Shown here piece after piece: positions 27,051 to 57,018 of a stretch of 64,000 bases of DNA. Numbering within the stretch: position 1 is the stretch's first letter; every line of letters begins with the position of its first letter. The stretch covers positions 220,658,001 to 220,722,000 of the forward strand of contig OZ024742.1 in NCBI GenBank assembly GCA_964016885.1, read 5' to 3'. A program made the translations under genes and the position numbers. The DNA is from Eledone cirrhosa (Eukaryota). The notes beneath the pieces were generated by a model. The model made no database searches, was not told where the DNA came from, and saw nothing but the letters and a program-made list of their open reading frames with translations.

Positions 27051-27119
<69 letters not shown>

Positions 27120-27323
27120 GGAGGTGAGTTTTATTGTAGTACAATAAAGCAATGCAGATATCGGATAAGAAGCACTCTACAGTTTGTAGGACTGGAGTAT
27201 ACATAATATATAAGATCAAAAGATGGTTAAAAGAGTTCCATGTATTTTATTATGCGCATTTCAATATGTTGATTTAAAACTGCACTATCCACAAGTGTTT
27301 TTAACCTTCATATCATGTCTTCC

Positions 27324-27394
27324 TATTTTATCTGATGAAAACACAAATGTTATTGCATGATGATATTTGTTTTTGAAATGCGCATAATAAAATA
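27324..27394 (+). ncRNA. Minimal type I hammerhead ribozyme
   Basis: Stem I tattttat/ataaaata, CUGAUGA (27332-27338), stem II aaa.acaaatgtta/tgatatttgt.ttt, GAAA (27375-27378), palindromic stem III UGCGCA, then UA. Confidence 0.85.
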
Positions 27395-27422
27395 CATGGA
27401 ACTCTTTTAACCATCTTTTGAT

Positions 27423-27513
<91 letters not shown>

Positions 27514-27553: not shown

Positions 27554-27622
27554 ATATATTTTATTATACATATTTCAAAGGTACTATGGTGTTTAAGTAC
27601 GTTTTCATCAGACAAAATATAT
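27554..27622 (-). ncRNA. Minimal type I hammerhead ribozyme (slightly decayed)
   Basis: Minus strand: atatattttgt CUGAUGA aaac-gtact-loop-agtac-cttt GAAA UAUGUA UA ataaaatatat; stem III is one change from palindromic UACGUA. Confidence 0.75.
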
Positions 27623-38837: not shown

Positions 38838-39559
38838 TAAATGAAGGTGTAGCATTTGTTATTCTCTGAATTGATTATAGAAAGTCACAATTTTACTTAT
38901 CACCTATGCATTACACCTTTTGAAAACTTCCTGGTTTTTTAATTGCTTCTCTTAAAACCTGACTAAGACCTTGCTGACAATGTGTGCGCTTATAATCATA
39001 TGCCTAAAAAAGACTTCTTTCGTATACTTGAAAAGAAAAATTTGAAAAAAATGCTCTTGTATATTTCTGCTCTAATATCACTGCAAACAATATGTCTACA
39101 AAAGCAAGAGACATTAATGTATATATTTTTTTAAACAATCTATTGGCCTTTGTCAAAAATATTTACAATACTGTGAAACACTTGAATTTAGTAGCATTTT
39201 CAGCTGATATAAAGATGGAATTTTGCCAATAAAAATTTAAATAATTCACATAGTTGAATGCTGAAAAATTATTGCATCAATAGTCTAACTTCCATAATCC
39301 AAAATCACACAAAGGTGCTGTAAACAAAGATGGGGTGAATGAATTTTATACTAGACTTTATCAAATACAGCAGTTAAGGCTTTCCACTTGAAACACGACA
39401 ATATCCCACAATGGATTTCCAATACATTGTGGGATACTTGATATGTGGGATACTTGATATATCTATAATATAAATAATCTACTTATATATTAAATATGCA
39501 CAAGATCCTGATGTCAACTGGAAGCTTGACAGTTTTATAGTTTTCTAGACAACAGTTAT

Positions 39560-40370
39560 TTTCTCCCTTCCTTTTTTTACCAATTGCCACATCTGTCTCA
39601 CCTCTGCACATCAAATTTGTTACCCACTGCCTTTTCCTCATCTATACTGACTCTGCAGCAGTGACTCCGGCATCTACTATAAATTTGAGAAAAGACAACA
39701 CCAATCACACATACCCCTGTTCTGTCATGGAGGCAGCACTCAACTAAGTCAGAGCTATCAACCCTACTCCCTACCATACAGCTGCAGATTGGATTCCCTT
39801 GTCTTTTACCTTCTACCTGACCATCCTCCCATTAAAACACACCCTCATCATAACACCTACTTTCTCCTCTCTATTACCTTCCCAGTTTTTCCACACCACC
39901 TCTTCTTTCTTCCAAAGGAGGCAGAAGTTTGACTGACCTTTTAGTAACGAGTTTGCCAATTCCAAAACACACCTAGCCAGCTACTTCACAATGCTCTCAT
40001 CCATGATGTCATACTTCTGTCTCTTTATTGAAACCACACACCATAAGCATCCCAGAATTCCAGTACATAGTCAAAAGTTTAGAAAAACTTCTGCCCACAT
40101 CATCAGCTGCATTACAGATAAACTTTGCAATGCAATATACAAAAGGTGAAGCAGGTCTCAGATTAGGTGATTGTTTTCACTAACATTTTCATACCAATCT
40201 CCACCTCATCAATGGAGGCTCTTAGTCTATCATTTTGACTTTGCCTGCTTACTCCATTGACCAGCTCACATTATCTGGAATCTCTAAATGTCACACTCAT
40301 AATGAGAAGTGATTTAGCTTTAGGTTTCACACAGCCTCATCTACATATGTTAACGAGGAATACTCCTTTT
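39560..40370 (+). mobile_element. Old Penelope-like 3' fragment (mirror near 49820-50630, minus)
   Basis: IPLSFTFY, GRSLTDLLV, CSHP*CHT and IISCITDKLCNAIY.GEAGLRLGDCF (decayed GIY-YIG). Confidence 0.7.
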
Positions 40371-40423
40371 TCCTAAAGTAATGTTTAAGTAATATATATA
40401 TGTATACACACGCACACATATTA

Positions 40424-40800
40424 TCGGTAGAGGGTTGGACGCCATGCTTTCTAGCATGATTACGTTCCTTTACGGTCTGAGTTCAAATCCCGTCGAGGTT
40501 AACTTTACCTTTCATCTTTACGGGGTCGATAAAATAAAGTACCAGTAATGTACTGGGTATTTGTTGGTCTTGTGCCAAAAATAGAAACAATTATCTGATA
40601 TTAAGGCGGTGGATTGGCAGTATCAGTAGAGCGTCAGACACAATGCCTTGCAGCATAGAGTTACAGCCCTTTCCGATCTGAGTTCAAATCCCATCGAGGT
40701 TAATTTGGAGCAGTGGAGGTTAACTTTGCCTTTCATCCTTACGGGGTTGATAAAATAAAGTACCAGTAATGCACTGGGATAATTGCTGGCCAAAAGTAGA
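40424..40800 (+). mobile_element. Two tRNA-derived SINEs (mirror near 49390-49766)
   Basis: A/B boxes and aaataaagtaccagt body. Confidence 0.85.
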
Positions 40801-40934
40801 AATAGTTATATTATACTAGCGAAGAATCACCTTCCGGCAGTTTCCTGCTAGCATATGTAGTGGGCATATTGGTATTATACACTAAATAGTTTTGCATATA
40901 GATATAATATGTAAATTGAAAAGTAAATTGACAA

Positions 40935-41535
40935 TATCTTCTTCTTCACCCACTTATTTCTGAGAGGGCCGTGGGGGCAGAGTCCTTCTCAAACACTCCT
41001 TCCAGGGAGTGTGTCAGTAGCAAACATCTCTAACTGATCCAGCTGCACCTGCCAAGCTCATGGATGTTATCCAACTATCTTGCTCAGGGTCTACCTCTGG
41101 GTCGCTTGCCGGTTGGTTTTTGCCTGTAACCACATGTCCATAGTATCGGAGCTATGATCTCTCAATCCAGAGAAGTAGCGGCTCTACTTGGAGTGACTCT
41201 CTGATCTCTGAGCTATGCACTTTATTGACTAAAGTTACTCCAAAGACCCTTCAGAGGAACCCTATTTCAGCAGCTTGTATTTGCCATCGTATTCTTTCGG
41301 TCATTACCCAAGATTCATAACCATAGGTAAGGGTTGGCAGGAATACCAGGAAGATAGCGAGTTTGACTTTTACACCTACCCCCCTTCTTCTGATTACTGA
41401 ATGCTGAAGCTGGCACATTACTGCATCAGCTTTTGTAATTCTTACACTTAATTCAGCCTCCTGCCTTCCATCACTCATGAACAGGGCCCCGAGATACTTG
41501 AACTTCTCTACCTGCTTCAGTGGAACTTCATTCAC
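40935..41535 (-). mobile_element. RTE family B 3' fragment (copies at 38105-38700 and 48656-49255)
   Basis: LKQVEKFKYLG..LPTLTYGYESW..IQAAEIGFL. Confidence 0.85.
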
Positions 41536-41645
41536 ATGTATATAAATTTGAGCGACTTCTGTCCATCCATCCGTCAAACAATGTGTGTGTGTGTTTGTGT
41601 GAATGTATGTGTGAGTAAAAGGAAGGAAGGGGATACACACACATA

Positions 41646-42548
41646 CCTAGCTAAGACTAAAGTGTTGATGAGTAGCAAAGAGGACAAAACTCTGATTCCA
41701 TCAGGGAAATGGCCATGTTCAGTATGTAGGAAAGGAGTTGGCATAAATTCTATAAAATGTACACAATGCAGATCTTGGGTACACAAGAGATGTAGTGGGA
41801 TAGCAGGCAAACTAATAGGTAGGGAAAACTACATATGCAGTAGATGTACAGGGAAATTTGACAGTAGAAGTCGCAGTGATAGACACATTTTTCAAATGCA
41901 GGTAGGATCTATAGAGGTGGTTGAAATCTTCCAATACCTAGGTGATCAGATTAGTAAGGGAGGAGGGTGCTCCAAATCCATAGTATCTAGAATAAGGACG
42001 GGTTGGAAGAAGTTTAGGGCACTGCTTCCTCTGTTGACAAAGAAGGGTTTCTCTCTACGAATGAAAGGTCGGCTATATGATGCCTGTGTGAGATGCACAT
42101 GCTGTATAGTAGTGAGACATGGGCAGCAACTGTGGAGGATATGCGATGGCTGGAGAGAAATGAAGCAAGCATGCTCCGATTGATATGCAATATCAATGTG
42201 CGTGAATGACCAAGCATAGACGAGTTGAGAGAGAAACTGTGTATAAGAGGAATTAGTTGTAGTGTTCGGGAGAGAAGACTGCGATGGTATGGACATGTGA
42301 TGCACATGGAGGATGATCGCTGGGTAAAGAAGTGTCAAAAAATCCCAATAGAAGGAAGACGCAGTAGAGGAAGACCAAGAAAAACATGGGCGTAAGTGGT
42401 GAGAGCTGATCTCAGATCACTGAAGCTCACGGAGGAGATGACAAAGGCTTGTGACGAATGGAGAGATGCTGTGATGAATAGGACCCGTCCCACCCTTGCA
42501 CACAGGGAAAAGCAGACTTAAAATGATGATGATGATGATGATAATGAT
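41646..42548 (+). mobile_element. RTE family A 3' fragment with (ATG)n tail (mirror 47643-48545)
   Basis: KTKVL..WPCSVCRKGVG..WVHKRCSGI..FQYLGD..KGRLYDACV. Confidence 0.9.
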
Positions 42549-42704
42549 ATATATATATATATGTATATATATATGACACACACACACATATATATAATGA
42601 CACAGACACACATGTCTCTAATTTAAGAATGCCAACAAACTCATGCACACACACTGTCCTATTACCACTTAAGAGCTTTGTCCCGGGCAAACATCCCCCT
42701 CAAT

Positions 42705-43045
42705 TGTCAAGAGGCAGGTGCCTTATCTGGGACGTCACAGTTAGTGACTGTTTAGCTTCTTCCCACATCCTGGATGCAGTGGTAAGGGTGAAAGCTACAG
42801 CATTTACAGCTGAATGGAACAAAATCCTAAAATACCATCATCTGTTGGCTAACTACATTTTCCAGGCAGTGGCGTTCGAGAAGTTTGGGGGAGTCGGGCT
42901 ACTGGCAGAGAGGTTTTTATCTTCACTGGCGGCTCGCCTAACCGAGGTAACTGGTGATACTCGTGAGGGCGCTTGATTGTTCCAGCACCTCAGCCTCACC
43001 ATCACCCGAGGTAACACTGTGAGTGTGCTGACTTGCCTCAAAAAT
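42705..43045 (+). mobile_element. CRE-like non-LTR retrotransposon C-terminal restriction-like endonuclease fragment (mirror 47146-47486)
   Basis: GRCLIWDVTVSDCLASSH..AE..K..KY..FQAVAFEKFG..VTGDTRE..FQHLSLTITRGN. Confidence 0.8.
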
Positions 43046-44110
43046 TCATAGACTGGTTTCTATAGTTTAAGACATGGTATGGCAATCGGCAATCAGGAAA
43101 AATTGGGGAATGAGGGGAATTGGGTGAATCGAGGAAAATTGGGGAAAATCCGGTGAAAATCTGGAAAAATTAAGGGAAATTTGTGGAAAATCCAAGGAAG
43201 ATCAGGAAAGATGTACGGAACATCTGGGAGTATCCGTGGATGATCAGAGAATCTGGAAAATACTGAGGAATATCTGGAAAAATCCAAGAGAAATCTGGGA
43301 ATTCCAAGGAAGATCTAGAAAATTCAGGGGAAACCCCTGGGAAAAACCTCAGATTTTACCAGTTTTCCCAGCTTTCCTCAGAATTTCCCAAATTTTCCTC
43401 GGAATTTCCTTGTTTATCCTCGGACTTCCCCAGATATTCCCCTGAATTTCCAATATTTTTCTGGGAAATTCCCATATTTTTCCCGAATTCTCCAGATTTT
43501 TCAAAGATTTCTCCCGATTTTCACCCGACTTTTGCCAATTAACCCTAGATTATCCCAGATTTTCCCCCGATTTTTCCCGATTCGTTGATTTCTCCTATTG
43601 CCCGAATTCCACGAATTTCCACACCACGATTTATCCGATTTACACCGATACCCCAATTTCTACGATTTCCCCCGACTCCTGATTCCCAATTTACCTGTTT
43701 TCTCCCGGATTTTGTCCGAATCCCACGGAGTTTCCAAGATTTTCTCAGATTTTCATCGAAATTCTCAGATATTTTCGGAATATCCTAGATTTTCCCAATT
43801 ACCCAGATTTGCCTTGGAATTTTCAGATTTTACTCGGATTTTCGCAGATTTTCCTCGGAATACACCAGATTTACCTTGTTACATTATAGGCAGCAGTTTA
43901 AGAATTAATATGCACTAGGTGACAAACTATAGGCACCATACGTTAAACTATAGGGACCAGTCATTGAATTATAGGCACCAGTCTAAAAAGTAAGTGCACT
44001 ATGGGTTAAAATATAGACACCAGCCTATGAAATATAGGTTCCCGTCTATAGCATATAGGCACCATTTTATAAACAATAGGCACCATCACCATAGTTAATA
44101 CCAACTGCAA

Positions 44111-44247
44111 ATACCAACAGATGTCCCTTTTCCTTTCAAACCATTGCAATTCCCAGTGAGAGTCAGTTACGCATTGGCTATCAAGTCCCAACGTCAAACA
44201 CTGCAGGTTGTCGGTCTCCATCTAGAAGAGGGCTGTTTCTCTATGGT
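44111..44247 (+). mobile_element. Helitron Pif1-type helicase C-terminal fragment
   Basis: My translation IPTDVPFPFKPLQFPVRVSYALAIKSQRQTLQVVGLHLEEGCFS matches the RepHel motif F.F.R.QFPVR..FAMTINKSQGQTL..VG..L...CFSHG. Confidence 0.88.
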
Positions 44248-46310
44248 GACTATAGTTTATCGTCTATGCCTATGTTTGATGAAATGGTGCCTATAGTTTA
44301 AAGTAAGGTGCCTATACATTATACTTAGGTTTCTATACGTTATAGACGGGAGTTTATAGTTCAGTGGCTGGTACCTATTGTTCAACTTATTGTGCCTATA
44401 GTTTATGAAAACGTGTCTATACTTTGAGGCGGAAGCTTATTGTTCATAGGCTAGCGCCTATAGTTTAACTGGTTCATAACCTGGTGTCTATTGTTTAAAG
44501 TATGGTGCCTATAGTGTTTTGACAAGTGCTTATAGTTTATAGCTCAGTGCCTATAATTTTTCAACCGGCCTCAATTCTTTAAAGTATGGTGCCTATAGTT
44601 TATTGGCGTTTGTCTATAGTTCATAGGATGATGCCTATAATTTACCTTATGTTGTCTACAGTTTATAGGTAGGTGCATCTATGTTATAGACGGGAGCATA
44701 TACTTTATAGGCCGGTTGCTTTCTTTTTACATCTGGTGCTTATAGTTTATTGACTGATGTCTATTCTTTAACATAATGTGCCTATAATTTTTTGAGTGGA
44801 ACCTATAGTCCGTAGACAGGTGCATATAGTATAACTATGGTGTCTATAGTTTATAAAAAGGTGTCTACTCTTTAGGCGTGAGCCTATAGTTCGTGCAATA
44901 GTGCTTATACTTTAACTTATAGTACCTATAGTTTATTAACAGGTGCCTGCAGTTCATAGACTGGTGTCTACATTTTAACATACAGTGCCTATAGTTTTTA
45001 AGTCAGTTTCCTATAGTTAATAGACTGATGCCTATAGTTTATCGCATTTCATAAACTGGTGCATACTGTTTAACGTTACATTTTAGTTAGAGTCTATAGT
45101 TCATAGGCTAGTGCCTATCGTTTAACTTATGGTGCATATATTGTTTGACTGGTGCCTATTGTTCATATTGCCTATATTTTATAGACTAATGTGTATAATT
45201 CAGAAAAAAAGCCTATATTTTAATGCCCATAATTTATATAAAAAGGTGCCTATACTTTTAGACTAGAGTCTACAGTTCTTAGATTGATCCTATTGTTTAA
45301 CTTATTGTGCCCTAGTTTTAACTATATTTCCTATAATGTTGCCTATATTTTAAAGTATGGTGCCTATAGTTTATCGCCTACTGCCTATAATTCATAAACG
45401 AGTGCCTATAGTATAACATATGGTGCCTATAATTTAGAAGTAGGTGTCTGTCCAACATTCATGCCCATGGCTATATTTGAAATTATGGTGCCTATAGTTT
45501 ATAGGTAGGTGCCTGTACGTTATAGATGGTAGCGTATAGTTCATAGACTGGTGCTCACATTTTAACATGTGCCTATAATTTATCGACTTGTGTCTGTACT
45601 TTAATGTATGGTGCGCAAAGAGTTTCAACTGGTGCCTATATTTCATAGCCTGTATTCTAATATATAGAACCTACAATTTTGTCGCCAAATGGCTACAATT
45701 CCCTGGTGACTGTAGTTTAACGTAGAGAGCCTATAATTCATAGGCTTGTGTCTATAATTTAACGTATGGTACCAATATTTTATAGACTGGTGCCTATATT
45801 TTAAAGTATGGTGTCAATAGTTTGTCAGCAAGTGCCTATAAGTCATAAAGAGGTGCCTATAGTTTAACGTATTGTGCCTATAGGTTTTGTGTAGCTGCCT
45901 ATGTTTTATAGACTGTATCCTATAATTCAAGAGCTGGTGCATGTACTTTATCGACTGGTTCTATGGTTTAAAGTATGGTGCCTATAGGTTTTAGACTGGT
46001 ATCTACAGTTCATTTGTGGCCCCTATGTTTTAACGTATTGTGTCTATAGATTATCGTCTAATATCTATGATTTATAAACTGGACCCTATACTTTAACTAT
46101 GGTGATGGTGCCTATTGTTTATAAAATGGTGCCTATATGCTATAGACGGGAACCTATATTTCATAGGCTGGTGTCTATATTTTAACCCATAGTGCACTTA
46201 CTTTTTAGACTGGTGCCTATAATTCAATGACTGGTCCCTATAGTTTAACGTATGGTGCCTATAGTTTGTCACCTAGTGCATATTAATTCTTAAACTGCTG
46301 CCTATAATGT
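44248..46310 (+). repeat. Degenerate minisatellite, core tggtgcctatagttt, about 20-22 bp unit
   Basis: Dozens of diverged copies visible. Confidence 0.9.
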
Positions 46311-49300
46311 AACAAGGTAAATCTGGTGTATTCCGAGGAAAATCTGCGAAAATCCGAGTAAAATCTGAAAATTCCAAGGCAAATCTGGGTAATTGGGAAA
46401 ATCTAGGATATTCCGAAAATATCTGAGAATTTCGATGAAAATCTGAGAAAATCTTGGAAACTCCGTGGGATTCGGACAAAATCCGGGAGAAAACAGGTAA
46501 ATTGGGAATCAGGAGTCGGGGGAAATCGTAGAAATTGGGGTATCGGTGTAAATCGGATAAATCGTGGTGTGGAAATTCGTGGAATTCGGGCAATAGGAGA
46601 AATCAACGAATCGGGAAAAATCGGGGGAAAATCTGGGATAATCTAGGGTTAATTGGCAAAAGTCGGGTGAAAATCGGGAGAAATCTTTGAAAAATCTGGA
46701 GAATTCGGGAAAAATATGGGAATTTCCCAGAAAAATATTGGAAATTCAGGGGAATATCTGGGGAAGTCCGAGGATAAACAAGGAAATTCCGAGGAAAATT
46801 TGGGAAATTCTGAGGAAAGCTGGGAAAACTGGTAAAATCTGAGGTTTTTCCCAGGGGTTTCCCCTGAATTTTCTAGATCTTCCTTGGAATTCCCAGATTT
46901 CTCTTGGATTTTTCCAGATATTCCTCAGTATTTTCCAGATTCTCTGATCATCCACGGATACTCCCAGATGTTCCGTACATCTTTCCTGATCTTCCTTGGA
47001 TTTTCCACAAATTTCCCTTAATTTTTCCAGATTTTCACCGGATTTTCCCCAATTTTCCTCGATTCACCCAATTCCCCTCATTCCCCAATTTTTCCTGATT
47101 GCCGATTGCCATACCATGTCTTAAACTATAGAAACCAGTCTATGAATTTTTGAGGCAAGTCAGCACACTCACAGTGTTACCTCGGGTGATGGTGAGGCTG
47201 AGGTGCTGGAACAATCAAGCGCCCTCACGAGTATCACCAGTTACCTCGGTTAGGCGAGCCGCCAGTGAAGATAAAAACCTCTCTGCCAGTAGCCCGACTC
47301 CCCCAAACTTCTCGAACGCCACTGCCTGGAAAATGTAGTTAGCCAACAGATGATGGTATTTTAGGATTTTGTTCCATTCAGCTGTAAATGCTGTAGCTTT
47401 CACCCTTACCACTGCATCCAGGATGTGGGAAGAAGCTAAACAGTCACTAACTGTGACGTCCCAGATAAGGCACCTGCCTCTTGACAATTGAGGGGGATGT
47501 TTGCCCGGGACAAAGCTCTTAAGTGGTAATAGGACAGTGTGTGTGCATGAGTTTGTTGGCATTCTTAAATTAGAGACATGTGTGTCTGTGTCATTATATA
47601 TATGTGTGTGTGTGTCATATATATATACATATATATATATATATCATCATCATCATCATCATCATCATTTTAAGTCTGCTTTTCCCTGTGTGCAAGGGTG
47701 GGACGGGTCCTATTCATCACAGCATCTCTCCATTCGTCACAAGCCTTTGTCATCTCCTCCGTGAGCTTCAGTGATCTGAGATCAGCTCTCACCACTTACG
47801 CCCATGTTTTTCTTGGTCTTCCTCTACTGCGTCTTCCTTCTATTGGGATTTTTTGACACTTCTTTACCCAGCGATCATCCTCCATGTGCATCACATGTCC
47901 ATACCATCGCAGTCTTCTCTCCCGAACACTACAACTAATTCCTCTTATACACAGTTTCTCTCTCAACTCGTCTATGCTTGGTCATTCACGCACATTGATA
48001 TTGCATATCAATCGGAGCATGCTTGCTTCATTTCTCTCCAGCCATCGCATATCCTCCACAGTTGCTGCCCATGTCTCACTACTATACAGCATGTGCATCT
48101 CACACAGGCATCATATAGCCGACCTTTCATTCGTAGAGAGAAACCCTTCTTTGTCAACAGAGGAAGCAGTGCCCTAAACTTCTTCCAACCCGTCCTTATT
48201 CTAGATACTATGGATTTGGAGCACCCTCCTCCCTTACTAATCTGATCACCTAGGTATTGGAAGATTTCAACCACCTCTATAGATCCTACCTGCATTTGAA
48301 AAATGTGTCTATCACTGCGACTTCTACTGTCAAATTTCCCTGTACATCTACTGCATATGTAGTTTTCCCTACCTATTAGTTTGCCTGCTATCCCACTACA
48401 TCTCTTGTGTACCCAAGATCTGCATTGTGTACATTTTATAGAATTTATGCCAACTCCTTTCCTACATACTGAACATGGCCATTTCCCTGATGGAATCAGA
48501 GTTTTGTCCTCTTTGCTACTCATCAACACTTTAGTCTTAGCTAGGTATGTGTGCGTATCCCCTTCCTTCCTTTTACTCACACATACATTCACACAAACAC
48601 ACACACACATTGTTTGACGGATGGATGAACAGAAGTCGCTCAAATTTATATACATGTGAATGAAGTTCCACTGAAGCAGGTAGAGAAGTTCAAGTATCTC
48701 GGGGCCCTGTTCATGAGTGATGGAAGGCAGGAGGCTGAATTAAGTGTAAGAATTACAAAAGCTGATGCAGTAATGTGCCAGCTTCAGCATTCAGTAATCA
48801 GAAGAAGGGGGGTAGGTGTAAAAGTCAAACTCGCTATCTTCCTGGTATTCCTGCCAACCCTTACCTATGGTTATGAATCTTGGGTAATAACCGAAAGAAT
48901 ACGATGGCAAATACAAGCTGCTGAAATAGGGTTCCTCTGAAGGGTCTTTGGAGTAACTTTAGTCAATAAAGTGCATAGCTCAGAGATCAGAGAGTCACCC
49001 CAAGTAGAGCCGCTACTTCTCTGGATTGAGAGATCATAGCTCCGATACTATGGACATGTGGTTACAGGCAAAACCAACCGGCAAGCGACCCAGAGGTAGA
49101 CCCTGAGCAAGATAGTTGGATAACATCCATGAGCTTGGCAGGTGCAGCTGGATCAGTTAGAGATGTTTGCTACTGACACACTCCCTGGAAGGAGTGTTTG
49201 AGAAGGACTCTGCCCCCACGGCCCTCTCAGAAATAAGTGGGTGAAGAAGAAGATATTGTCAATTTACTTTTCAATTTACATATTATATCTATATGCAAAA

Positions 49301-51353
49301 CTATTTAGTGTATAATACCAATATGCACACTACATATGCTAGCAGGAAACTGCCGGAAGGTGATTCTTCGCTAGTATAATATAACTATTTCTACTTTTGG
49401 CCAGCAATTATCCCAGTGCATTACTGGTACTTTATTTTATCAACCCCGTAAGGATGAAAGGCAAAGTTAACCTCCACTGCTCCAAATTAACCTCGATGGG
49501 ATTTGAACTCAGATCGGAAAGGGCTGTAACTCTATGCTGCAAGGCATTGTGTCTGACGCTCTACTGATACTGCCAATCCACCGCCTTAATATCAGATAAT
49601 TGTTTCTATTTTTGGCACAAGACCAACAAATACCCAGTACATTACTGGTACTTTATTTTATCGACCCCGTAAAGATGAAAGGTAAAGTTAACCTCGACGG
49701 GATTTGAACTCAGACCGTAAAGGAACGTAATCATGCTAGAAAGCATGGCGTCCAACCCTCTACCGATAATATGTGTGCGTGTGTATACATATATATATTA
49801 CTTAAACATTACTTTAGGAAAAAGGAGTATTCCTCGTTAACATATGTAGATGAGGCTGTGTGAAACCTAAAGCTAAATCACTTCTCATTATGAGTGTGAC
49901 ATTTAGAGATTCCAGATAATGTGAGCTGGTCAATGGAGTAAGCAGGCAAAGTCAAAATGATAGACTAAGAGCCTCCATTGATGAGGTGGAGATTGGTATG
50001 AAAATGTTAGTGAAAACAATCACCTAATCTGAGACCTGCTTCACCTTTTGTATATTGCATTGCAAAGTTTATCTGTAATGCAGCTGATGATGTGGGCAGA
50101 AGTTTTTCTAAACTTTTGACTATGTACTGGAATTCTGGGATGCTTATGGTGTGTGGTTTCAATAAAGAGACAGAAGTATGACATCATGGATGAGAGCATT
50201 GTGAAGTAGCTGGCTAGGTGTGTTTTGGAATTGGCAAACTCGTTACTAAAAGGTCAGTCAAACTTCTGCCTCCTTTGGAAGAAAGAAGAGGTGGTGTGGA
50301 AAAACTGGGAAGGTAATAGAGAGGAGAAAGTAGGTGTTATGATGAGGGTGTGTTTTAATGGGAGGATGGTCAGGTAGAAGGTAAAAGACAAGGGAATCCA
50401 ATCTGCAGCTGTATGGTAGGGAGTAGGGTTGATAGCTCTGACTTAGTTGAGTGCTGCCTCCATGACAGAACAGGGGTATGTGTGATTGGTGTTGTCTTTT
50501 CTCAAATTTATAGTAGATGCCGGAGTCATTGCTGCAGAGTCAGTATAGATGAGGAAAAGGCAGTGGGTAACAAATTTGATGTGCAGAGGTGAGACAGATG
50601 TGGCAATTGGTAAAAAAAGGAAGGGAGAAAATAACTGTTGTCTAGAAAACTATAAAACTGTCAAGCTTCCAGTTGACATCAGGATCTTGTGCATATTTAA
50701 TATATAAGTAGATTATTTATATTATAGATATATCAAGTATCCCACATATCAAGTATCCCACAATGTATTGGAAATCCATTGTGGGATATTGTCGTGTTTC
50801 AAGTGGAAAGCCTTAACTGCTGTATTTGATAAAGTCTAGTATAAAATTCATTCACCCCATCTTTGTTTACAGCACCTTTGTGTGATTTTGGATTATGGAA
50901 GTTAGACTATTGATGCAATAATTTTTCAGCATTCAACTATGTGAATTATTTAAATTTTTATTGGCAAAATTCCATCTTTATATCAGCTGAAAATGCTACT
51001 AAATTCAAGTGTTTCACAGTATTGTAAATATTTTTGACAAAGGCCAATAGATTGTTTAAAAAAATATACATTAATGTCTCTTGCTTTTGTAGACATATTG
51101 CTTGCAGTGATATTAGAGCAGAAATATACAAGAGCATTTTTTTCAATTTTTTCTTTTCAAGTATACGAAAGAAGTCTTTTTTAGGCATATGATTATAAGC
51201 GCACACATTGTCAGCAAGGTCTTAGTCAGGTTTTAAGAGAAGCAATTAAAAAACCAGGAAGTCTTCAAAAGGTGTAATGCATGGGTGATAAGTAAAATCG
51301 TGACTTTCTATAATCAATTCAGAGAATAACAAATGCTACGCCTTCATTTATCA
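46093..51353 (-). repeat. Right arm of large inverted repeat
   Basis: Reverse complement of 38835-44098. Confidence 0.95.
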
Positions 51354-52069
51354 AAATACTTTGATTCCTGCTATACAATATTATTAGATTCACAATGCTC
51401 TTGAACGAAATTGTTGAGTCAGTTAGAGCAAAAGTTCTCAATGGGGGGCGTTTCGTATCTCCAGAGGAGCGTTATGCAGTGAGGGGCGTTAGGGGGCGTT
51501 TGAAACTTTAGGGGCGCTAGAAGCTCCTTTAGTTTGGTAAGTTTTATAAGTCATATTTGTAGTCTCTTAGACAGCCAGTGTGAATGGATTTGAATGAAGA
51601 AAACGAAGAAAATAAATAAAAGAAGCTTGTCAAAGAAAATCAAAAGAAATCAAAGAGAATGAAAATAGGGACTACTTCAACAGAAATGACAACAAAAAGA
51701 AGCAATGGTAGTGAACATACACACACATACATACATACATACATACACACACACATATATATACACACACAGGCCGGCGTTAGTGTTTGATGAGCTTGAG
51801 AACCCGGCCAGCAAGTGTGGTATTTAATCTCCCTAGGTAATAAAATCTGGAGACAAAATGTTTCTCCTTACCAAAAAAGAACACATAGATCATATCAACA
51901 TCCTTACACACTTAAATATAAATGCATGTATATGTACAAATGTATAAATGCATAGCTATATACATACGTAAATGTATGCATGTATATATGTATGTAGATT
52001 TATATATATATATATATAATAATGAAATGACAGGAGGCTGGATTTGTGTAAATCCTTGAAAGGTTTATT

Positions 52070-52127
52070 ATACTATGATCATTTCAATGACCGGGTTCCG
52101 TATGAATCCGGTGATATCATCAGGTAT
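52070..52127 (-). ncRNA. Minimal type I hammerhead motif
   Basis: Minus strand: atac CUGAUGA tatc-accggattc-atacg-gaacccggt-catt GAAA UGAUCA UA gtat. Confidence 0.72.
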
Positions 52128-52481
52128 TCGAAATATAATACGTGAATGTAATAGGTAAAATCCATGGGGCTGAAAATCGAGACCCGAGGGCGACCGCTAT
52201 TCTGTTCCTTCAACCTCAGCTGGTCGCCCTGGAGTGACGTGGCTAAATTTTATAGTATGCTACTACCGGTCAGATGAACGAAAACAGAAAGGATGGGAGC
52301 ATAGGTTAACGTCGATCCCATGACACAAGGTAAAAGAAAGAAAGAAAGGAAGGAGAAGAAGAGAAGTCAGGGTTAATGTCAGCTAAAAGAGGAAGGTAAC
52401 TACTACTGGTCAGATATAGGCAAGCAAGAGGGGGAAGGAAGATAAGTCTGCGGGAGGAGGAGAGGAGAGAAGGAAGGGAAG

Positions 52482-53500
52482 AGAGAAGTAGAAAAGTAAG
52501 GGTTGATGGCTACAAGAAGGAAGATAGAAAGGAAGAGGAAGAAAGGTCGATATTAATGTCAGACCACAGTCAAGCCAGGAGTGGCGCGAGAAAATTTTCA
52601 CAGGGACCCGCATCTTAGCGGAGATGAATATATTGGGAGTCAGTGTTTTACAGTGTTTAGACTTCTAGGATGAAGTTAAAAAAATTAATAATCAATATTC
52701 AATATTAAAGAGGTTAGAAAATTTAAAGTTCAACAGTTTAACAATTAATTATATAATAGTTCCGATTTGTTCTGTAATTTAAAGGTACTATTTGGCGGTT
52801 AAAACAACGGCCGCGCCCCGGGCCCCATGGCGAATTAAGCCACGCCGAGTATTTTCATTTACTGAAAGAAGGGGTAATTTATTTTTCCAAGCACTCCAGG
52901 TGAGCTCGTTCGCCAGGGAGCTGGTCGCGCCGCCATTAAAACCCACCCAACAGTCCGACAGAAAGTTGGAACTTTAAAATTTAGCTTAGAGAAGTAAAAG
53001 AGTAATGGTTGATAGCTACAAGAAGGAAGATAGAAAGAGAGAGGAAGGAAGGTCGATATTAATGTCACACCACAGTCGGGCCAGGAGTGGCGCGACAAAA
53101 TTTTCACAGGGACTCGCATCTTAGCAGAGGTGAATATATTGGGGGTCAGTGTGTTACAATGTTTAGACTTATAGGATGAAGTTAAAAAATTAATAAATTA
53201 ATAATCAATATTCCATATTAAAGAGGTTAGAAAATTTAAAGCTCAACAGTTTCAGGTTGATATATATAATAGCTCCGATTTGTTCTGTAATTTAAAGGTA
53301 CTATTTGGCGGTTAAAACACCGGCCGCGCCCCGGGCCCCATGGCTAATTAAGCCACGCCGAGTATTTTCATTTACCGAAAGAAGGGGAATTTATTTTTCC
53401 AAGCACTCCAGGTGAGCCCGTTCGCCAGGGAGCTGGTCGCGCCGCCGCTAAAACCCACCCAACGGTCCGACAGAAAGTTGGAACTTTAGAATTTTGCTTA
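52482..53500. repeat. Internal tandem duplication, about 510 bp x2
   Basis: 52482-52987 is colinear with 52988-53500. Confidence 0.9.
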
Positions 53501-54853
53501 ACTCTATCGGATGAAGTTGAAAGAATTCAGAATAACATTATAAAACTAAGGAGTAAGAGGATTGAGAATTGAACAAACAGAAAATTGAAGATTAGACATT
53601 CAAATAACTTCTATGAGGTTTTGGGTTGCGGGGTTTAATTAAATAGTCTTTTATGAAGAAACGTTAATTGTATTATGTAGATCTGTAATTTATCCTAGTG
53701 GGATGTAGAGTACGGGATATAGTCGTGTAATGTTTAATTTTTGTTCTCAGGAGGAGACATTCTAGTGTCGTGTGCTAATGGGTACAGGTCCCAATGTGAG
53801 GAGTAGAAATACATGGATACATAGAAGTGGAATACGTGGAAGAGCTAATGGGTACAGGTCCCAATGTGAGGGGTAGAAATACATGGATACATAGAAGTGG
53901 AATATGTGGAAGAGCACATTGGTACAGCAGAGGTATAAATATATAAACATATCAATATATAGGTATAAACATGTAAATAAACCAACAAGAGTGGTGTTGG
54001 AGTAAGATGGAGAAATCAGGACATTAATACAGCAAACAAAGATGTGAAGATATAGATAAACAAACAATAGTCGTTGTCTAGTAAATGTAGAGTTCAAGAG
54101 ACAGGAGAAATACAATATAGTTCAGGTTGCGGTATTAATGTTCCCAGGGGGAAATATTCCAGTGACGTGTGCTGAGGGTACACACGAGTAAAAGTCCGAA
54201 TAAGGGAAGTAGAAAGTACATGGGTGTATAGAGGTAGAATACGTGGAGGAGCATTAATACAGCAAATAAAAATGTAAAGATATAAATAAACAAACAAGAG
54301 TCGTTGTCTATTAAATGGAGAGTTCAAGACACAGGAGAAATACAATATAGTTCAAGTTGCAGTCAGATAATGCATATAGATGTGGAAACAGTGCGTGTTC
54401 GAGTCTGGGAGTTCAGTGTGAGTTATACATGCCCAGAAGTATAGGGTAGCCATTTAGTTAATTCAGTGCAGTACAATACATGTTATGGTCCAGTCCGTGG
54501 AGTTTCGTCGAAGTTCGGATATTCTGTGAGGGGAGTAGCAAAGGGCCAGGCGAAAGCACCGGGTAGCCAAAGTTCGAATTGTGGTTAGATATATTCAGTC
54601 CCATGCCGCTGTTGATTATTACATTTTGAAGTGCTCAACATTTCAGGAGCGTTATTTATTCAGGTTTGAGGTTCACCACTGTATAGAGCTGGTCTATTCC
54701 GTATGGTCAATCGTAATGCAATAATGTAGAGAGTACTCAACGTAAAGCAGTTCAACCGTCTTTGTTTTTGTAGTTGGTGGTGCTATTACGGAGTTAAATA
54801 TTATAATGAAATGACAGGAGGCTGGATTTGTGTAAATCCTTGAAAGGTTTATT

Positions 54854-54911
54854 ATACTATGATCATTTCAATGACCGGGTTCCGTATGAATCCGGTGATA
54901 TCATCAGGTAT
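54854..54911 (-). ncRNA. Minimal type I hammerhead motif
   Basis: Identical to 52070-52127. Confidence 0.72.
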
Positions 54912-55096
54912 TCGAAATATAATACGTGAATGTAATAGGTAAAATCCATGGGGCTGAAAATCGAGACCCGAGGGCGACCGCTATTCTGTTCCTTCAACCT
55001 CAGCCGGTCGCCCTGGAGTGACGTGGCTAAATTTTATAGGGTCTCGATTTTCAGCCCCATGGATTTTACCTATTACATTCACGTATTATATTTCGA

Positions 55097-55154
55097 ATAC
55101 CTGATGATATCACCGGATTCATACGGAACCCGGTCATTGAAATGATCATAGTAT
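55097..55154 (+). ncRNA. Minimal type I hammerhead motif (inverted copy)
   Basis: CUGAUGA 55101-55107, GAAA 55139-55142, palindromic UGAUCA, UA, stem I atac/gtat. Confidence 0.72.
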
Positions 55155-55348
55155 AATAAACCTTTCAAGGATTTACACAAATCCAGCCTCCTGTCATTTC
55201 ATTATAATATTTAACTCCGTAATAGCACCACCAACTACAAAAACAAAGACGGTTGAACTGCTTTACGTTGAGTACTCTCTACATTATTGCATTACGATTG
55301 ACCATACGGAATAGACCAGCTCTATACAGTGGTGAACCTCAAACCTGA

Positions 55349-55433
<85 letters not shown>

Positions 55434-55880
55434 CTTGTAGTGCACCTCCGTGCACTACAAGACAACATGAGAGAACGGTTTTTCGACCTTTTGCAGATGG
55501 ATATCCCAATGTGGATAGCAGATCTCTTCATAGCTAACGTCGACGATTTGGACGCTAAATTTCAGGAAGAATTAATTGAACTTCAGACAGATGACGTTAT
55601 CAAAATAAAATTTTCCAAAATAGGTGAACCTCTTTTTTGGATGCAAGAGGAAATTCAGCGTCGATTTCCACTCCTACATGCAGAGGCTAAGAGATTTGCT
55701 TTGCCTTTTCCTAGCTGATACTTAGTCGAGAGGGGGTTTGGCGCTGTTTCCAGACTGCATAGCAAGGCTCGCAACCGCTACAATGTGATTGCACGTGGAG
55801 ATCTCCGGTTACATCTTACGAAAATCCAGCCTGACGTCAAAGAGTTAGCTAAACTCCATGAAGCTCAAGGATTCCATTGA
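55434..55880 (+). pseudogene. hAT transposase C-terminal (dimerisation) fragment
   Basis: FQEELIELQ..FW..PFPS*YLVERGFGAV..KARNR..RGDLRLHLT..PDVKEL..HEAQGFH*; one internal stop. Confidence 0.88.
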
Positions 55881-57018
55881 AACGAGGTCAAAGTAAGTCG
55901 ATTTTTTTATCTGTAGTTTCAGTCTGACTGGACTGGAAACCATCTACTACAATTCACTTACCCATTTGTTGTATATATTTTACGGTTTACTAATGAATAT
56001 ACCCTCTTACATGGTCATGAATATATCCTCTTCCGTGGTCTCTAAGTTCACAAAGCGGAGGGGACATCAAGTTAGATATCAACATTTATTCTGTCCGTTT
56101 CATTAAAGGAAAAATTGGAAAGCTTTGAAATAATACAATTGCCACTTTCTTCCAGATAAGAGCACTCTTTGGATAGACAGAGTTACTCTTGTATAAATGT
56201 TCAAAATAGCTGGTATCGTCTGGTGGGAATATAGCAAATTCAACTGGTCCTTATTCATAAAAAAGAACATTTATGTTCCTTTTTTGAAATTTATATACTT
56301 CCATTCAAGGATGTATTTATACTTTTAACTGCCTGCAATGGTATCTTTGGAATATCGTTAATCATTATTTTAGTAATCTACTGATATCAAAATCAGTAAT
56401 ATATTGAAAAATGGAAAAATAGGGTACCGGGGCGTTTCGTGATTTCGAAGGGCAAAAGGGGGCGTTTGGCCGAAATGGGTTGAGAACCTTTGAGTTAGAG
56501 TAAAGTTTATCACCTTTTTATGCAGCGGTCATCCTTCGGGTGAATTTCTGCTAGCATGTGTAGTGTGTATATTGATATTATATGCAGGTGTATATACATG
56601 TAGATATGATACATCAAATAAAATCGTAATTGACAATATATAATTCATAGAAATTGAACGAAGACTGCGTTACACTGTCTTATTTAATCAGTAACGTAAT
56701 CCATGATACATTAAAAAAGACGATATCTAATATATATTTGTGAAATGGGTGGTGGTTGAAATTCAGTCGTGCACGGTTAAATGGTAGTAGACGTGGTCGG
56801 ACGGACATGAAAATTTACACATCTATGTAAAAAGTGCCAAGGAAGCAAATCTCTAACTTGAAAAATGTGGTCCCTGGGGCCCCAAAACGGTCTATTTACT
56901 ATCGCGTTCGGTGAGTTATTTCCAGCATGTTCTAATACTTGGATGAGTTATTTACAATTTCATACAAATAAAGCAGTAAATAAAGGATTATGAGTTCATG
57001 CAATTGACTTATGTTTCG

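Follow-up and report, generated by a model that had tools for sequence, protein, structure and literature searches.

How can an insertion that carries three hammerhead ribozyme motifs, and no recognizable protein of its own, be copied again and again into the (TA)n tracts of its host genome? This question is raised by an element at positions 52019 to 55355 of a stretch of the Eledone cirrhosa genome (GenBank assembly GCA_964016885.1, contig OZ024742.1, positions 220,658,001 to 220,722,000, forward strand); the whole stretch of 64,000 nucleotides that was analyzed is referred to here as the window. The element is a member of a non-autonomous Penelope-like family, and features of its sequence suggest that it is probably mobilized by enzymes of the Hydra clade of Penelope-like elements (PLEs). 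The explanation that we favor, and regard as likely, is that of a young, high-copy, protein-free Penelope-like retroelement, the 2.8-kb RNA of which is copied into (TA)n by a Hydra-clade Penelope reverse transcriptase (RT)-endonuclease of the same genome.

The insertion displays the Penelope pseudo-long terminal repeat (pseudo-LTR, pLTR) architecture proposed for it in a sequence-only reading of the window, consisting of direct pseudo-LTRs, an inverted arm, a one-sided tail and a hammerhead within the pseudo-LTR. The two direct repeats of 237 bp are spaced 2784 nt apart and differ, as that reading had stated, at a single site (52221 T vs 55005 C), and the inverted copy is an exact reverse complement of 54653-54969 (317 bp, 100%). 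The internal duplications that had been noted in the interior were recovered as repeats of 514 bp at 91%, 117 bp at 91% and 2.2 x 70 bp, and (TA)n flanks the insertion on both sides.

Similarity searches show that the element is far from single-copy. The 237-bp repeat has 1,634 candidate places in the genome, with all 40 of those scored being approximately 100% identical over the full length, and the interior has 1,738 candidates, among which 20 of the 40 scored, not counting the window, cover it in full at 95-99% identity; the proposal of a young, multi-copy, non-autonomous family is thus upheld, and the family is discrete and non-coding. From approximately 1,700 candidate full-length loci, 20 near-full loci were mapped. 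All 20 are circular permutations of one unit of ~2800 nt flanked by (TA)n, the insertion site that had been noted, and they span 1 to ~1.8 units with random 5′ ends; no array of two or more units was present among them. With one exception, in locus L031, the 3′ ends fall at unit positions 57-64 or 205-207, so that copies end ~55 and ~200 nt past the predicted cleavage point and not at it, the exact junctions being blurred by a few bases because both end sites are AT-rich. A second, inverted arm is found in 15 of the mapped loci as well as in the window, and in 14 of these 15, and likewise in the window, a short (+57-64) end is paired with a long (+205-207) end, the tail extension of ~150 bp being at one end only. 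The distal end is carried by 8 of the 20 long arms. None of the 15 second arms stops at the cleavage site; six, plus that of the window, stop within ~40 nt of the foot of a hairpin located upstream of the hammerhead, which may be a pause site. In a second sample of 30 loci taken in order of position, containing relatives at 76-99%, most loci are short head-to-head pairs of 3′ ends, and the 13 with two arms comprise ten short-plus-long pairs, one short-plus-short pair and two with a disrupted short arm. One mapped locus, L041, has an inverted repeat of ~23 bp outside the (TA)n runs, and perhaps represents an insertion in the center of another head-to-head element.

The lineage extends beyond the window-type copies. 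Copies of subfamily B are 87-95% identical, with a unit of 2211 nt in locus L161 that includes an insert of ~175 nt resembling a short interspersed element (SINE), and copies of subfamily C are 79-90% identical, with a unit of ~2.0 kb. The two share 66-70% identity over 1.6-1.8 kb, both match the window unit in colinear blocks of 59-90%, and still older short copies retain both ends. No open reading frame (ORF) was found in the window-type, B or C units, the longest stop-free frames of which measure 84-119 codons. The colinearity of these older non-coding subfamilies with the window unit indicates that the lineage has long been amplified without a protein. The same SINE-like repeat is located at three different positions in L161, L137 and L157, and apparently also occurs in L171; it has short target duplications, and related copies lie at window positions 49412-49730. 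It may resemble a repeat of octopus genomes.

An autonomous PLE would carry an ORF with RT and GIY-YIG endonuclease domains. The window unit has no stop-free frame longer than 119 codons and no PLE protein match, in agreement with the earlier statement that the interior lacks such an ORF. When ORFs of at least 300 aa from 50 GIY-YIG loci were compared with the interior by TBLASTN, the check that the sequence-only reading had suggested, nothing significant was returned (best E 0.069) and the interior did not align to a PLE ORF. Of the two outcomes that the sequence-only reading had named as refuting its proposal, an interior that aligns throughout to such an ORF and an element that is single-copy and catalytically dead, neither holds as far as the sequence can tell. 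Comparison of the three sense frames with both halves of the Hydra-like family H2, described below, likewise gave nothing significant (best E 0.079), the comparison having covered sense frames and left out antisense frames and the family H1. A faint PLE N-terminal relic had also been suggested near 53650-53700. The peptide in question, DKLQIYIIQLTFLHKRL, exists in the window sequence. However, BLASTP did not align it with the N-terminus of a Poseidon-like ORF of 905 aa, it matches none of the PLE proteins tested, and its frame is, by reading, shifted in subfamilies B and C; the relic is therefore unsupported. The alternative of ordinary dead Penelope elements, with an interior derived from a PLE coding region by decay, draws on the one faint match obtained, in which a duplicated interior stretch agrees with a conserved Hydra peptide at 10 of 17 residues (E 0.079, the best of six comparisons). 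A small part of the unit may thus descend from an ancient ORF. The copies are, however, 97-99% identical and equally non-coding, and must therefore have been amplified after any coding loss; the three subfamilies are colinear and non-coding, and the comparisons described above gave no significant protein match. As an account of present behavior this explanation is largely refuted, and we consider it extremely unlikely.

The three hammerheads with palindromic stem III that had been reported are present as identical minimal type I motifs, with CUGAUGA at -52123, -54907 and +55101, a stem I of 4 bp, the palindrome UGAUCA, a long stem II that is interrupted, has U on either side and is followed by GAAA, and a UA cleavage site. 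The Rfam scan did not detect them (0 hammerhead rows among 54 matches at E ≤ 1). The pattern CTGATGA-N12-40-GAAATGATCATA has 5,545 matches in the genome versus 0 for the reversed control, these being motifs of the whole lineage and not insertions. The U-U mismatch at the base of stem II had been raised as a caveat on this copy; a pattern with U on both sides of stem II has 47,647 genome matches versus 892 in the control, at least six unrelated families are represented among the first 100 listed, and U...U is also found in an autonomous Neptune-like family. Because it is common to so many families, the pair is no private lesion of this copy. More than half of those first 100 motifs belong to a very abundant family of short hammerheads with a stem II of ~12 nt, often arranged in close inverted pairs. 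The motif resembles the minimal hammerheads of metazoan PLEs (Cervera and de la Pena 2014, PMC4209133) in its short stem I, long stem II and palindromic stem III, and differs from them in that U-U replaces the usual G10.1-C11.1 pair. Those hammerheads are predicted to work as dimers with low activity, and the lowest-energy fold computed for the monomer here, in which the catalytic core would pair with the palindrome, is in line with the dimer or protein-assisted models of PMC4209133 and PMC11167929.

Conservation singles out the hammerhead and its surroundings. Across subfamilies with bodies that diverge by 30-40%, the hammerhead hardly varies, in a set that was partly picked by the hammerhead pattern itself, and the exact pattern occurs in 14 of 20 subfamily B and C loci that were picked through the body. 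In a structure alignment that includes the 14-bp upstream hairpin, 94% of cells pair and none of 500 shuffles reaches the covariation score, a control that ignores relatedness and is applied to a structure drawn from the same sequences.

The spacing of the two predicted cuts on the minus strand (after 52074 and after 54858) is 2784 nt, so the unit length from which a retrozyme-like RNA had been proposed is arithmetically right; the comparison otherwise needs correction, as the ends lie 55 and 200 nt off the cut, the 20 loci contain no arrays, and the behavior of the family is that of a Penelope element. A giant retrozyme, tandemly arranged and replicating from RNA to RNA as a circle, in the manner of the animal retrozymes of 200-400 nt, would fit a unit bounded by co-oriented type I hammerheads with palindromic stem III. 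The animal non-LTR retrozymes (Cervera and de la Pena 2020, PMC7229834; Li et al. 2026) are also non-coding, carry a type I hammerhead and have a proposed dependence on PLEs. The window family is in contrast 3-10 times longer and dispersed, with a minimal-type hammerhead and PLE-style ends. Retrozymes are tandem repeats of less than 1 kb, reported units in animals being 51-972 bp at search periods of up to 1000 (bioRxiv 10.64898/2026.07.22.740005), whereas the units here are 2.0-2.8 kb with at most ~1.8 units in the 20 loci; the canonical type I motif has a 6-bp stem I, a 4-bp stem II and loop-loop contacts, compared with a 3-4 bp stem I and the long interrupted stem II observed. Given also the fixed ends and the head-to-head arms, we regard a giant retrozyme as very unlikely.

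Of particular interest is what lies directly beyond the two end sites, which the sequence-only reading had not pointed out, nor had it named Hydra as the likely partner clade. Past the distal end, the motif GCTCC-N5-TGTYGAGYRCTT is common to the three subfamilies and to a PLE family of this genome, H1, in an ungapped alignment, with one B copy and H1 agreeing, by reading, at 19 of 22 nt. Beyond the proximal end lies a related stem, ACTC...GAGT, the first pair being A-U at site 1 and G-C at site 2. H1 was reached through a hammerhead with a 6-nt palindrome, which led to a locus (L252) with an RT and GIY-YIG frame bearing the Hydra features of PMC8557442, and the family includes many intact frames of 745 aa. 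The translations of H1 and of a second family, H2, have a C-terminal GIY-YIG without CCHH, and the elements have a hammerhead and (TA)n as in the Hydra clade; CxCX5C in the linker and DKT were read in both, and RWR, an RWK-like motif, in H1. On these sequence features both appear to qualify as Hydra-clade elements in the sense of that paper. The site motif pattern is found in 19 of 20 family loci and 23 of 30 H1 loci, compared with 0 of 30 Neptune-like, 1 of 30 Poseidon-like and 1 of 50 GIY-YIG loci; only the last three counts are controls, because the pattern was designed from the family and H1. When the motif is required to be followed by an ORF start of the form K-D/N-I-P, 776 genome matches are obtained versus 2 in the control, and the 100 listed represent at least six distinct families, five of which were not used in designing the motif. 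H2 agrees with the window family in further details. The register of stem II, including a C-C mismatch, is shared, stem I is followed by AAUAAA, and a hairpin occupies the matching place upstream; copies of H2 end near +55 at the proximal site and immediately ahead of the motif at the distal one. H2 is young, with pLTR pairs at 99-100%. Three H2 loci (L319, L326 and L327) have two long overlapping frames, the split falling in the RT-endonuclease linker close to a run of G that varies in length. The partner may be one or another of the Hydra-like families, because none of the seven scanned loci of H2, the closest of them, has an uninterrupted ORF.

A looser form of the site motif has four matches in the window versus 0.33 expected, one of which is in a head-to-head hammerhead pair at 27137-27426 (region 27115-27430). 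This pair has one short and one long end, with the stem-loop motif at 27170-27197, and is for these reasons probably Hydra-type too. The hammerheads near 27 kb (27115-27430 and 27560-27620) belong to other (TA)n families.

A motif of ~57 nt in the interior is duplicated in all three subfamilies, A, B and C, has 1,080 genome matches versus 0 in the control, and opens with a stem resembling those beside the ends; 19 of 30 loci retrieved through it contain the hammerhead pattern. It was considered as a stable RNA structure and rejected, as it folds no better than shuffles (z -0.65 to +1.3), and structure is not claimed for it because the apparent compensatory changes fall at CpG sites.

An autonomous partner sharing the same repeat, for which a BLASTN search had been recommended, was not found: by BLASTN and profile search, terminal matches in Neptune-like and Poseidon-like loci are only inserted copies of the family. 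Hydra-like loci were compared with the window termini by pattern and by alignment, and resemble them in short motifs with no long alignment. Young, (TA)n-targeting Neptune-like and Poseidon-like families with long ORFs do exist in the genome and could supply the enzyme in place of a Hydra-clade element. One Neptune-like family, N1, likewise has U...U flanking stem II. An AT-rich string of 14 nt, ~40-60 nt past the cut, is common to N1 and the window family, and on this basis N1 was raised as a partner; it was dropped when the site motif proved absent from all 30 N1 loci and its ends, read in the same number, were placed at ~+125 and ~+172. The Poseidon-like family has the motif in 1 of 30 loci and no terminal similarity, and the stem III palindromes of Neptune-like and Poseidon-like elements measure 4 or 2 nt, versus 6. 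We therefore judge a partner from either group unlikely. N1 is itself young (copies 99% identical, 4.2-kb unit; L211 4852-6188 and 8963-9727, and L183), and its N-terminal ORF overlaps the RT-endonuclease frame at a U UUU UUA heptamer, which in sequence suggests a -1 frameshift; an optional frameshifted ORF1 appears in Fig. 1 of PMC8557442. Other Neptune-like families (L081 ~1450-1480 and L093) have a variant hammerhead core of the U3-A8 type described in PMC4209133.

A mechanism can be outlined for mobilization by a Hydra-clade enzyme. The 2.8-kb unit would be transcribed, and the borrowed enzyme, probably as a dimer, would dock on the two stem-loop motifs; complementary DNA (cDNA) would begin a few bases 5′ of each motif, one for each nicked target strand, and two starts in a single event would yield one short-ended and one long-ended arm joined head-to-head. 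The short-plus-long rule would arise because both docking motifs are used in one event. An inserted copy stops before the distal motif, and therefore its 3′ tail cannot carry that motif; with the distal end on 8 of 20 long arms and no sampled locus of two units, full-length copies with the long end would have to be made from a template carrying that motif beyond one complete unit. Such a template might arise as a circle, cut by the hammerhead and ligated again, by a jump of the copying enzyme from one side of the cut to the other, or from a rare master array of at least two units outside the sample. The lack of stops at the cut among the 15 second arms indicates that the usual template is something other than a simple linear monomer released by cleavage. 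A single hammerhead is predicted to be inactive by itself, and activity may depend on pairing through an 8-nt palindrome and/or on protein help. This outline parallels what is known of the Poseidon element PAc of Anolis (Frangieh et al. 2024, PMC11167929), in which the protein nicks AT-rich target DNA on both strands and both are extended, cDNA starts at two internal RNA sites 3′ of the cut that define the two genomic ends, and RNA 3′ of these start sites is needed, the predicted binding region extending there. PAc differs in being autonomous, with start sites inside the ORF in an AC-rich stem-loop and a tail of 30-40 bp; in the window family the tail is ~150 bp and each end precedes a repeated motif.

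A bolder version of this mechanism is possible but doubtful, in which the family is a long-lived, multi-kilobase, protein-free lineage of RNA parasites of Hydra-clade elements, a hammerhead-made 2.8-kb circle is bound by a dimeric enzyme on its two stem-loops, and both strands are made from one RNA. If true, it would explain the one-short-one-long rule, the tail and the partial tandems of more than one unit; it would also give Penelope hammerheads a defined job and make the stem-loop a general Hydra recognition signal. That no mapped copy exceeds two units counts against a circle.

The template of this non-autonomous family could instead be read-through RNA that is transcribed from rare tandem master loci and stays uncleaved. 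The hammerhead would then be a passenger or serve another step, and no circle would form, a tenable account that we hold as somewhat short of probable. In vitro, hammerhead mutants are without effect on insertion and unprocessed RNA is the main substrate (PMC11167929), the modeled monomer folds with its core paired off, and no copy reaches two units, though endless rolling-circle copying would permit it; the lack of stops at the cleavage site in 15 second arms fits uncleaved RNA and a circle equally. However, the mapped loci include no array of two or more units even though 8 of 20 long arms carry the distal end, and the hammerhead has been kept nearly invariant, and exact in 14 of the 20 body-found loci, while the bodies diverged. 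Master arrays may nevertheless exist, because only 20 of ~1,700 candidate loci were mapped.

That possibility is one of several points that weigh against the explanation favored here. In the only in vitro PLE system, hammerhead cleavage is dispensable and no reads end at the cut (PMC11167929), and an antisense self-priming model accounts for head-to-head arms as well (PMC3846280). The link to Hydra rests on motifs of ~20 nt and details of the hammerhead, and BLASTN and profile searches of the Neptune-like and Poseidon-like loci returned no autonomous element with long similarity to the termini. The motif hairpins are no more stable than shuffles (z -1.7 to +0.2), no uninterrupted ORF was found in seven H2 loci scanned of the eight retrieved, and the intact 745-aa ORFs belong to H1, the hammerhead of which resembles that of the window less. 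Lastly, one arm in locus L031 terminates inside the unit, the sole departure from the two end sites.

Several known systems resemble the family in part. It shares (TA)n targets, a hammerhead near the 3′ end, partial tandems and inverted arms with Hydra-clade PLEs (Craig et al. 2021, PMC8557442), and with the Hydra-like families of this genome two end sites with a motif past each, H2 also matching in the details of stem II. It differs from Hydra-clade PLEs in having no ORF and a non-coding unit of 2.0-2.8 kb, with likeness limited to short motifs; neither the end motif nor a non-autonomous Hydra dependant is mentioned in the passages of PMC8557442 consulted here. Protein-free or unrelated sequence mobilized in trans between pLTRs is known in non-autonomous Chlamys PLEs such as MRC1 (PMC8557442); Chlamys elements mostly have no hammerheads, and the 3′ end of a non-autonomous form is in general similar to that of its parent. 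In Adineta vaga, pLTR-flanked cargo with direct and inverted pLTRs has been mobilized in trans, for which pLTRs suffice (PMC3846280); the rotifer cases are isolated events, whereas the window lineage carries a hammerhead and was amplified in successive waves. Non-autonomous PLEs are thus already known, and what is new here is a family of several kilobases that bears a hammerhead, has spread in successive waves and is linked to the Hydra clade through a short motif. No description of the family or of the end motif was found in the literature, a search outside which lie Repbase, Dfam, subscription journals and supplements; the supplements of PMC8557442, which cover Hydra families and hammerheads, may be relevant to how new the family is.

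The element is nested, as had been noted, in a hAT-type DNA transposon remnant. This host has 13-bp terminal inverted repeats (TIRs) at 51429-51441 and 56480-56492 (2 matches, 0.01 expected). Its 8-bp target duplication, AGTTAGAG, is directly visible in the sequence at 51421-51428 and 56493-56500. A frame in the right flank resembling the hAT dimerization domain falls in an Atlas cluster in which 24% of the members have PF05699 (score 0.93, recognition below threshold), a protein match that serves as a lead only, and a Pfam search gave no hAT family in the host remnant; its putative transposase remnant presumably resembles the C-termini of Buster and Charlie elements. A short palindrome at 55433-55463 directly follows the right (TA)n within the hAT remnant. 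Elsewhere in the window, at ~39400-50760, nested inverted repeats (43094-43501/46690-47097, 42552-42613/47578-47646 and 39428-39460/50730-50762) surround 21-bp tandem arrays, an arrangement that suggests a large foldback-type element. Coordinates of the features are collected in Table 1.

Table 1. Features of the insertion and its host transposon, in window positions.
Feature	Position	Strand	Remarks
hAT-type DNA transposon remnant (host)	51421..56500	+	TIRs, 8-bp target duplication, putative transposase C-terminal remnant ~55434-55877
(TA)n target, left	52001..52018
Whole insertion	52019..55355	-	Long arm 55039->52019, ~1.08 units, sense on minus; short inverted arm joined head-to-head
3′ pseudo-LTR copy	52019..52255	-	Stops at proximal (+55) end site
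Type I minimal hammerhead	52070..52127	-	Predicted cleavage after 52074
Non-coding 2784-nt unit between two predicted cleavage sites	52074..54857	-	~2800 nt in most sister copies
14-bp hairpin upstream of hammerhead	52186..52231 (second copy 54970-55015)	-	Both-side changes in 4/14 pairs across subfamilies
Internal duplication, ~510 bp, 91%	52482..53500	-	Each copy with conserved ~57-nt motif (near 52848-52920, 53360-53432)
Smaller internal duplications	53742..54363	-	70-bp tandem; 117 bp at 91%
Site-2 stem-loop motif GCUC...GUUGAGCRCUU	54629..54650	-	Just past distal end site; gapless match in Hydra-like PLEs; putative docking role
Site-1 stem-loop motif ACUC...GUUGAGU	54730..54794	-	Just past proximal end site; sequence, fold, Hydra-like counterparts; putative docking role
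5′ pseudo-LTR copy	54803..55039	-	5′-truncated upstream partial unit plus unit start
Type I minimal hammerhead	54854..54911	-	Predicted cleavage after 54858
Inverted short arm	55039..55355	+	Stops at distal (+200) end site; 5′ end at foot of upstream hairpin
Third hammerhead, in inverted arm	55097..55154	+
(TA)n target, right	55349..55431

How the partial tandems, inverted arms and tails of Penelope elements are made, and what their hammerheads do, is an open question in the papers cited. A protein-free family retains only what the enzyme and the RNA cycle need, and its conserved parts therefore point to cis-signals, namely the hammerhead, the upstream hairpin and the stem-loop beside each end, the last being found in at least six Hydra-like families. 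The existence of non-autonomous hammerhead PLE families of several kilobases also means that retrozyme screens restricted to tandem repeats of less than 1 kb would miss them. The family would thus provide a handle on how Penelope elements replicate, and allows a specific test of binding and priming.

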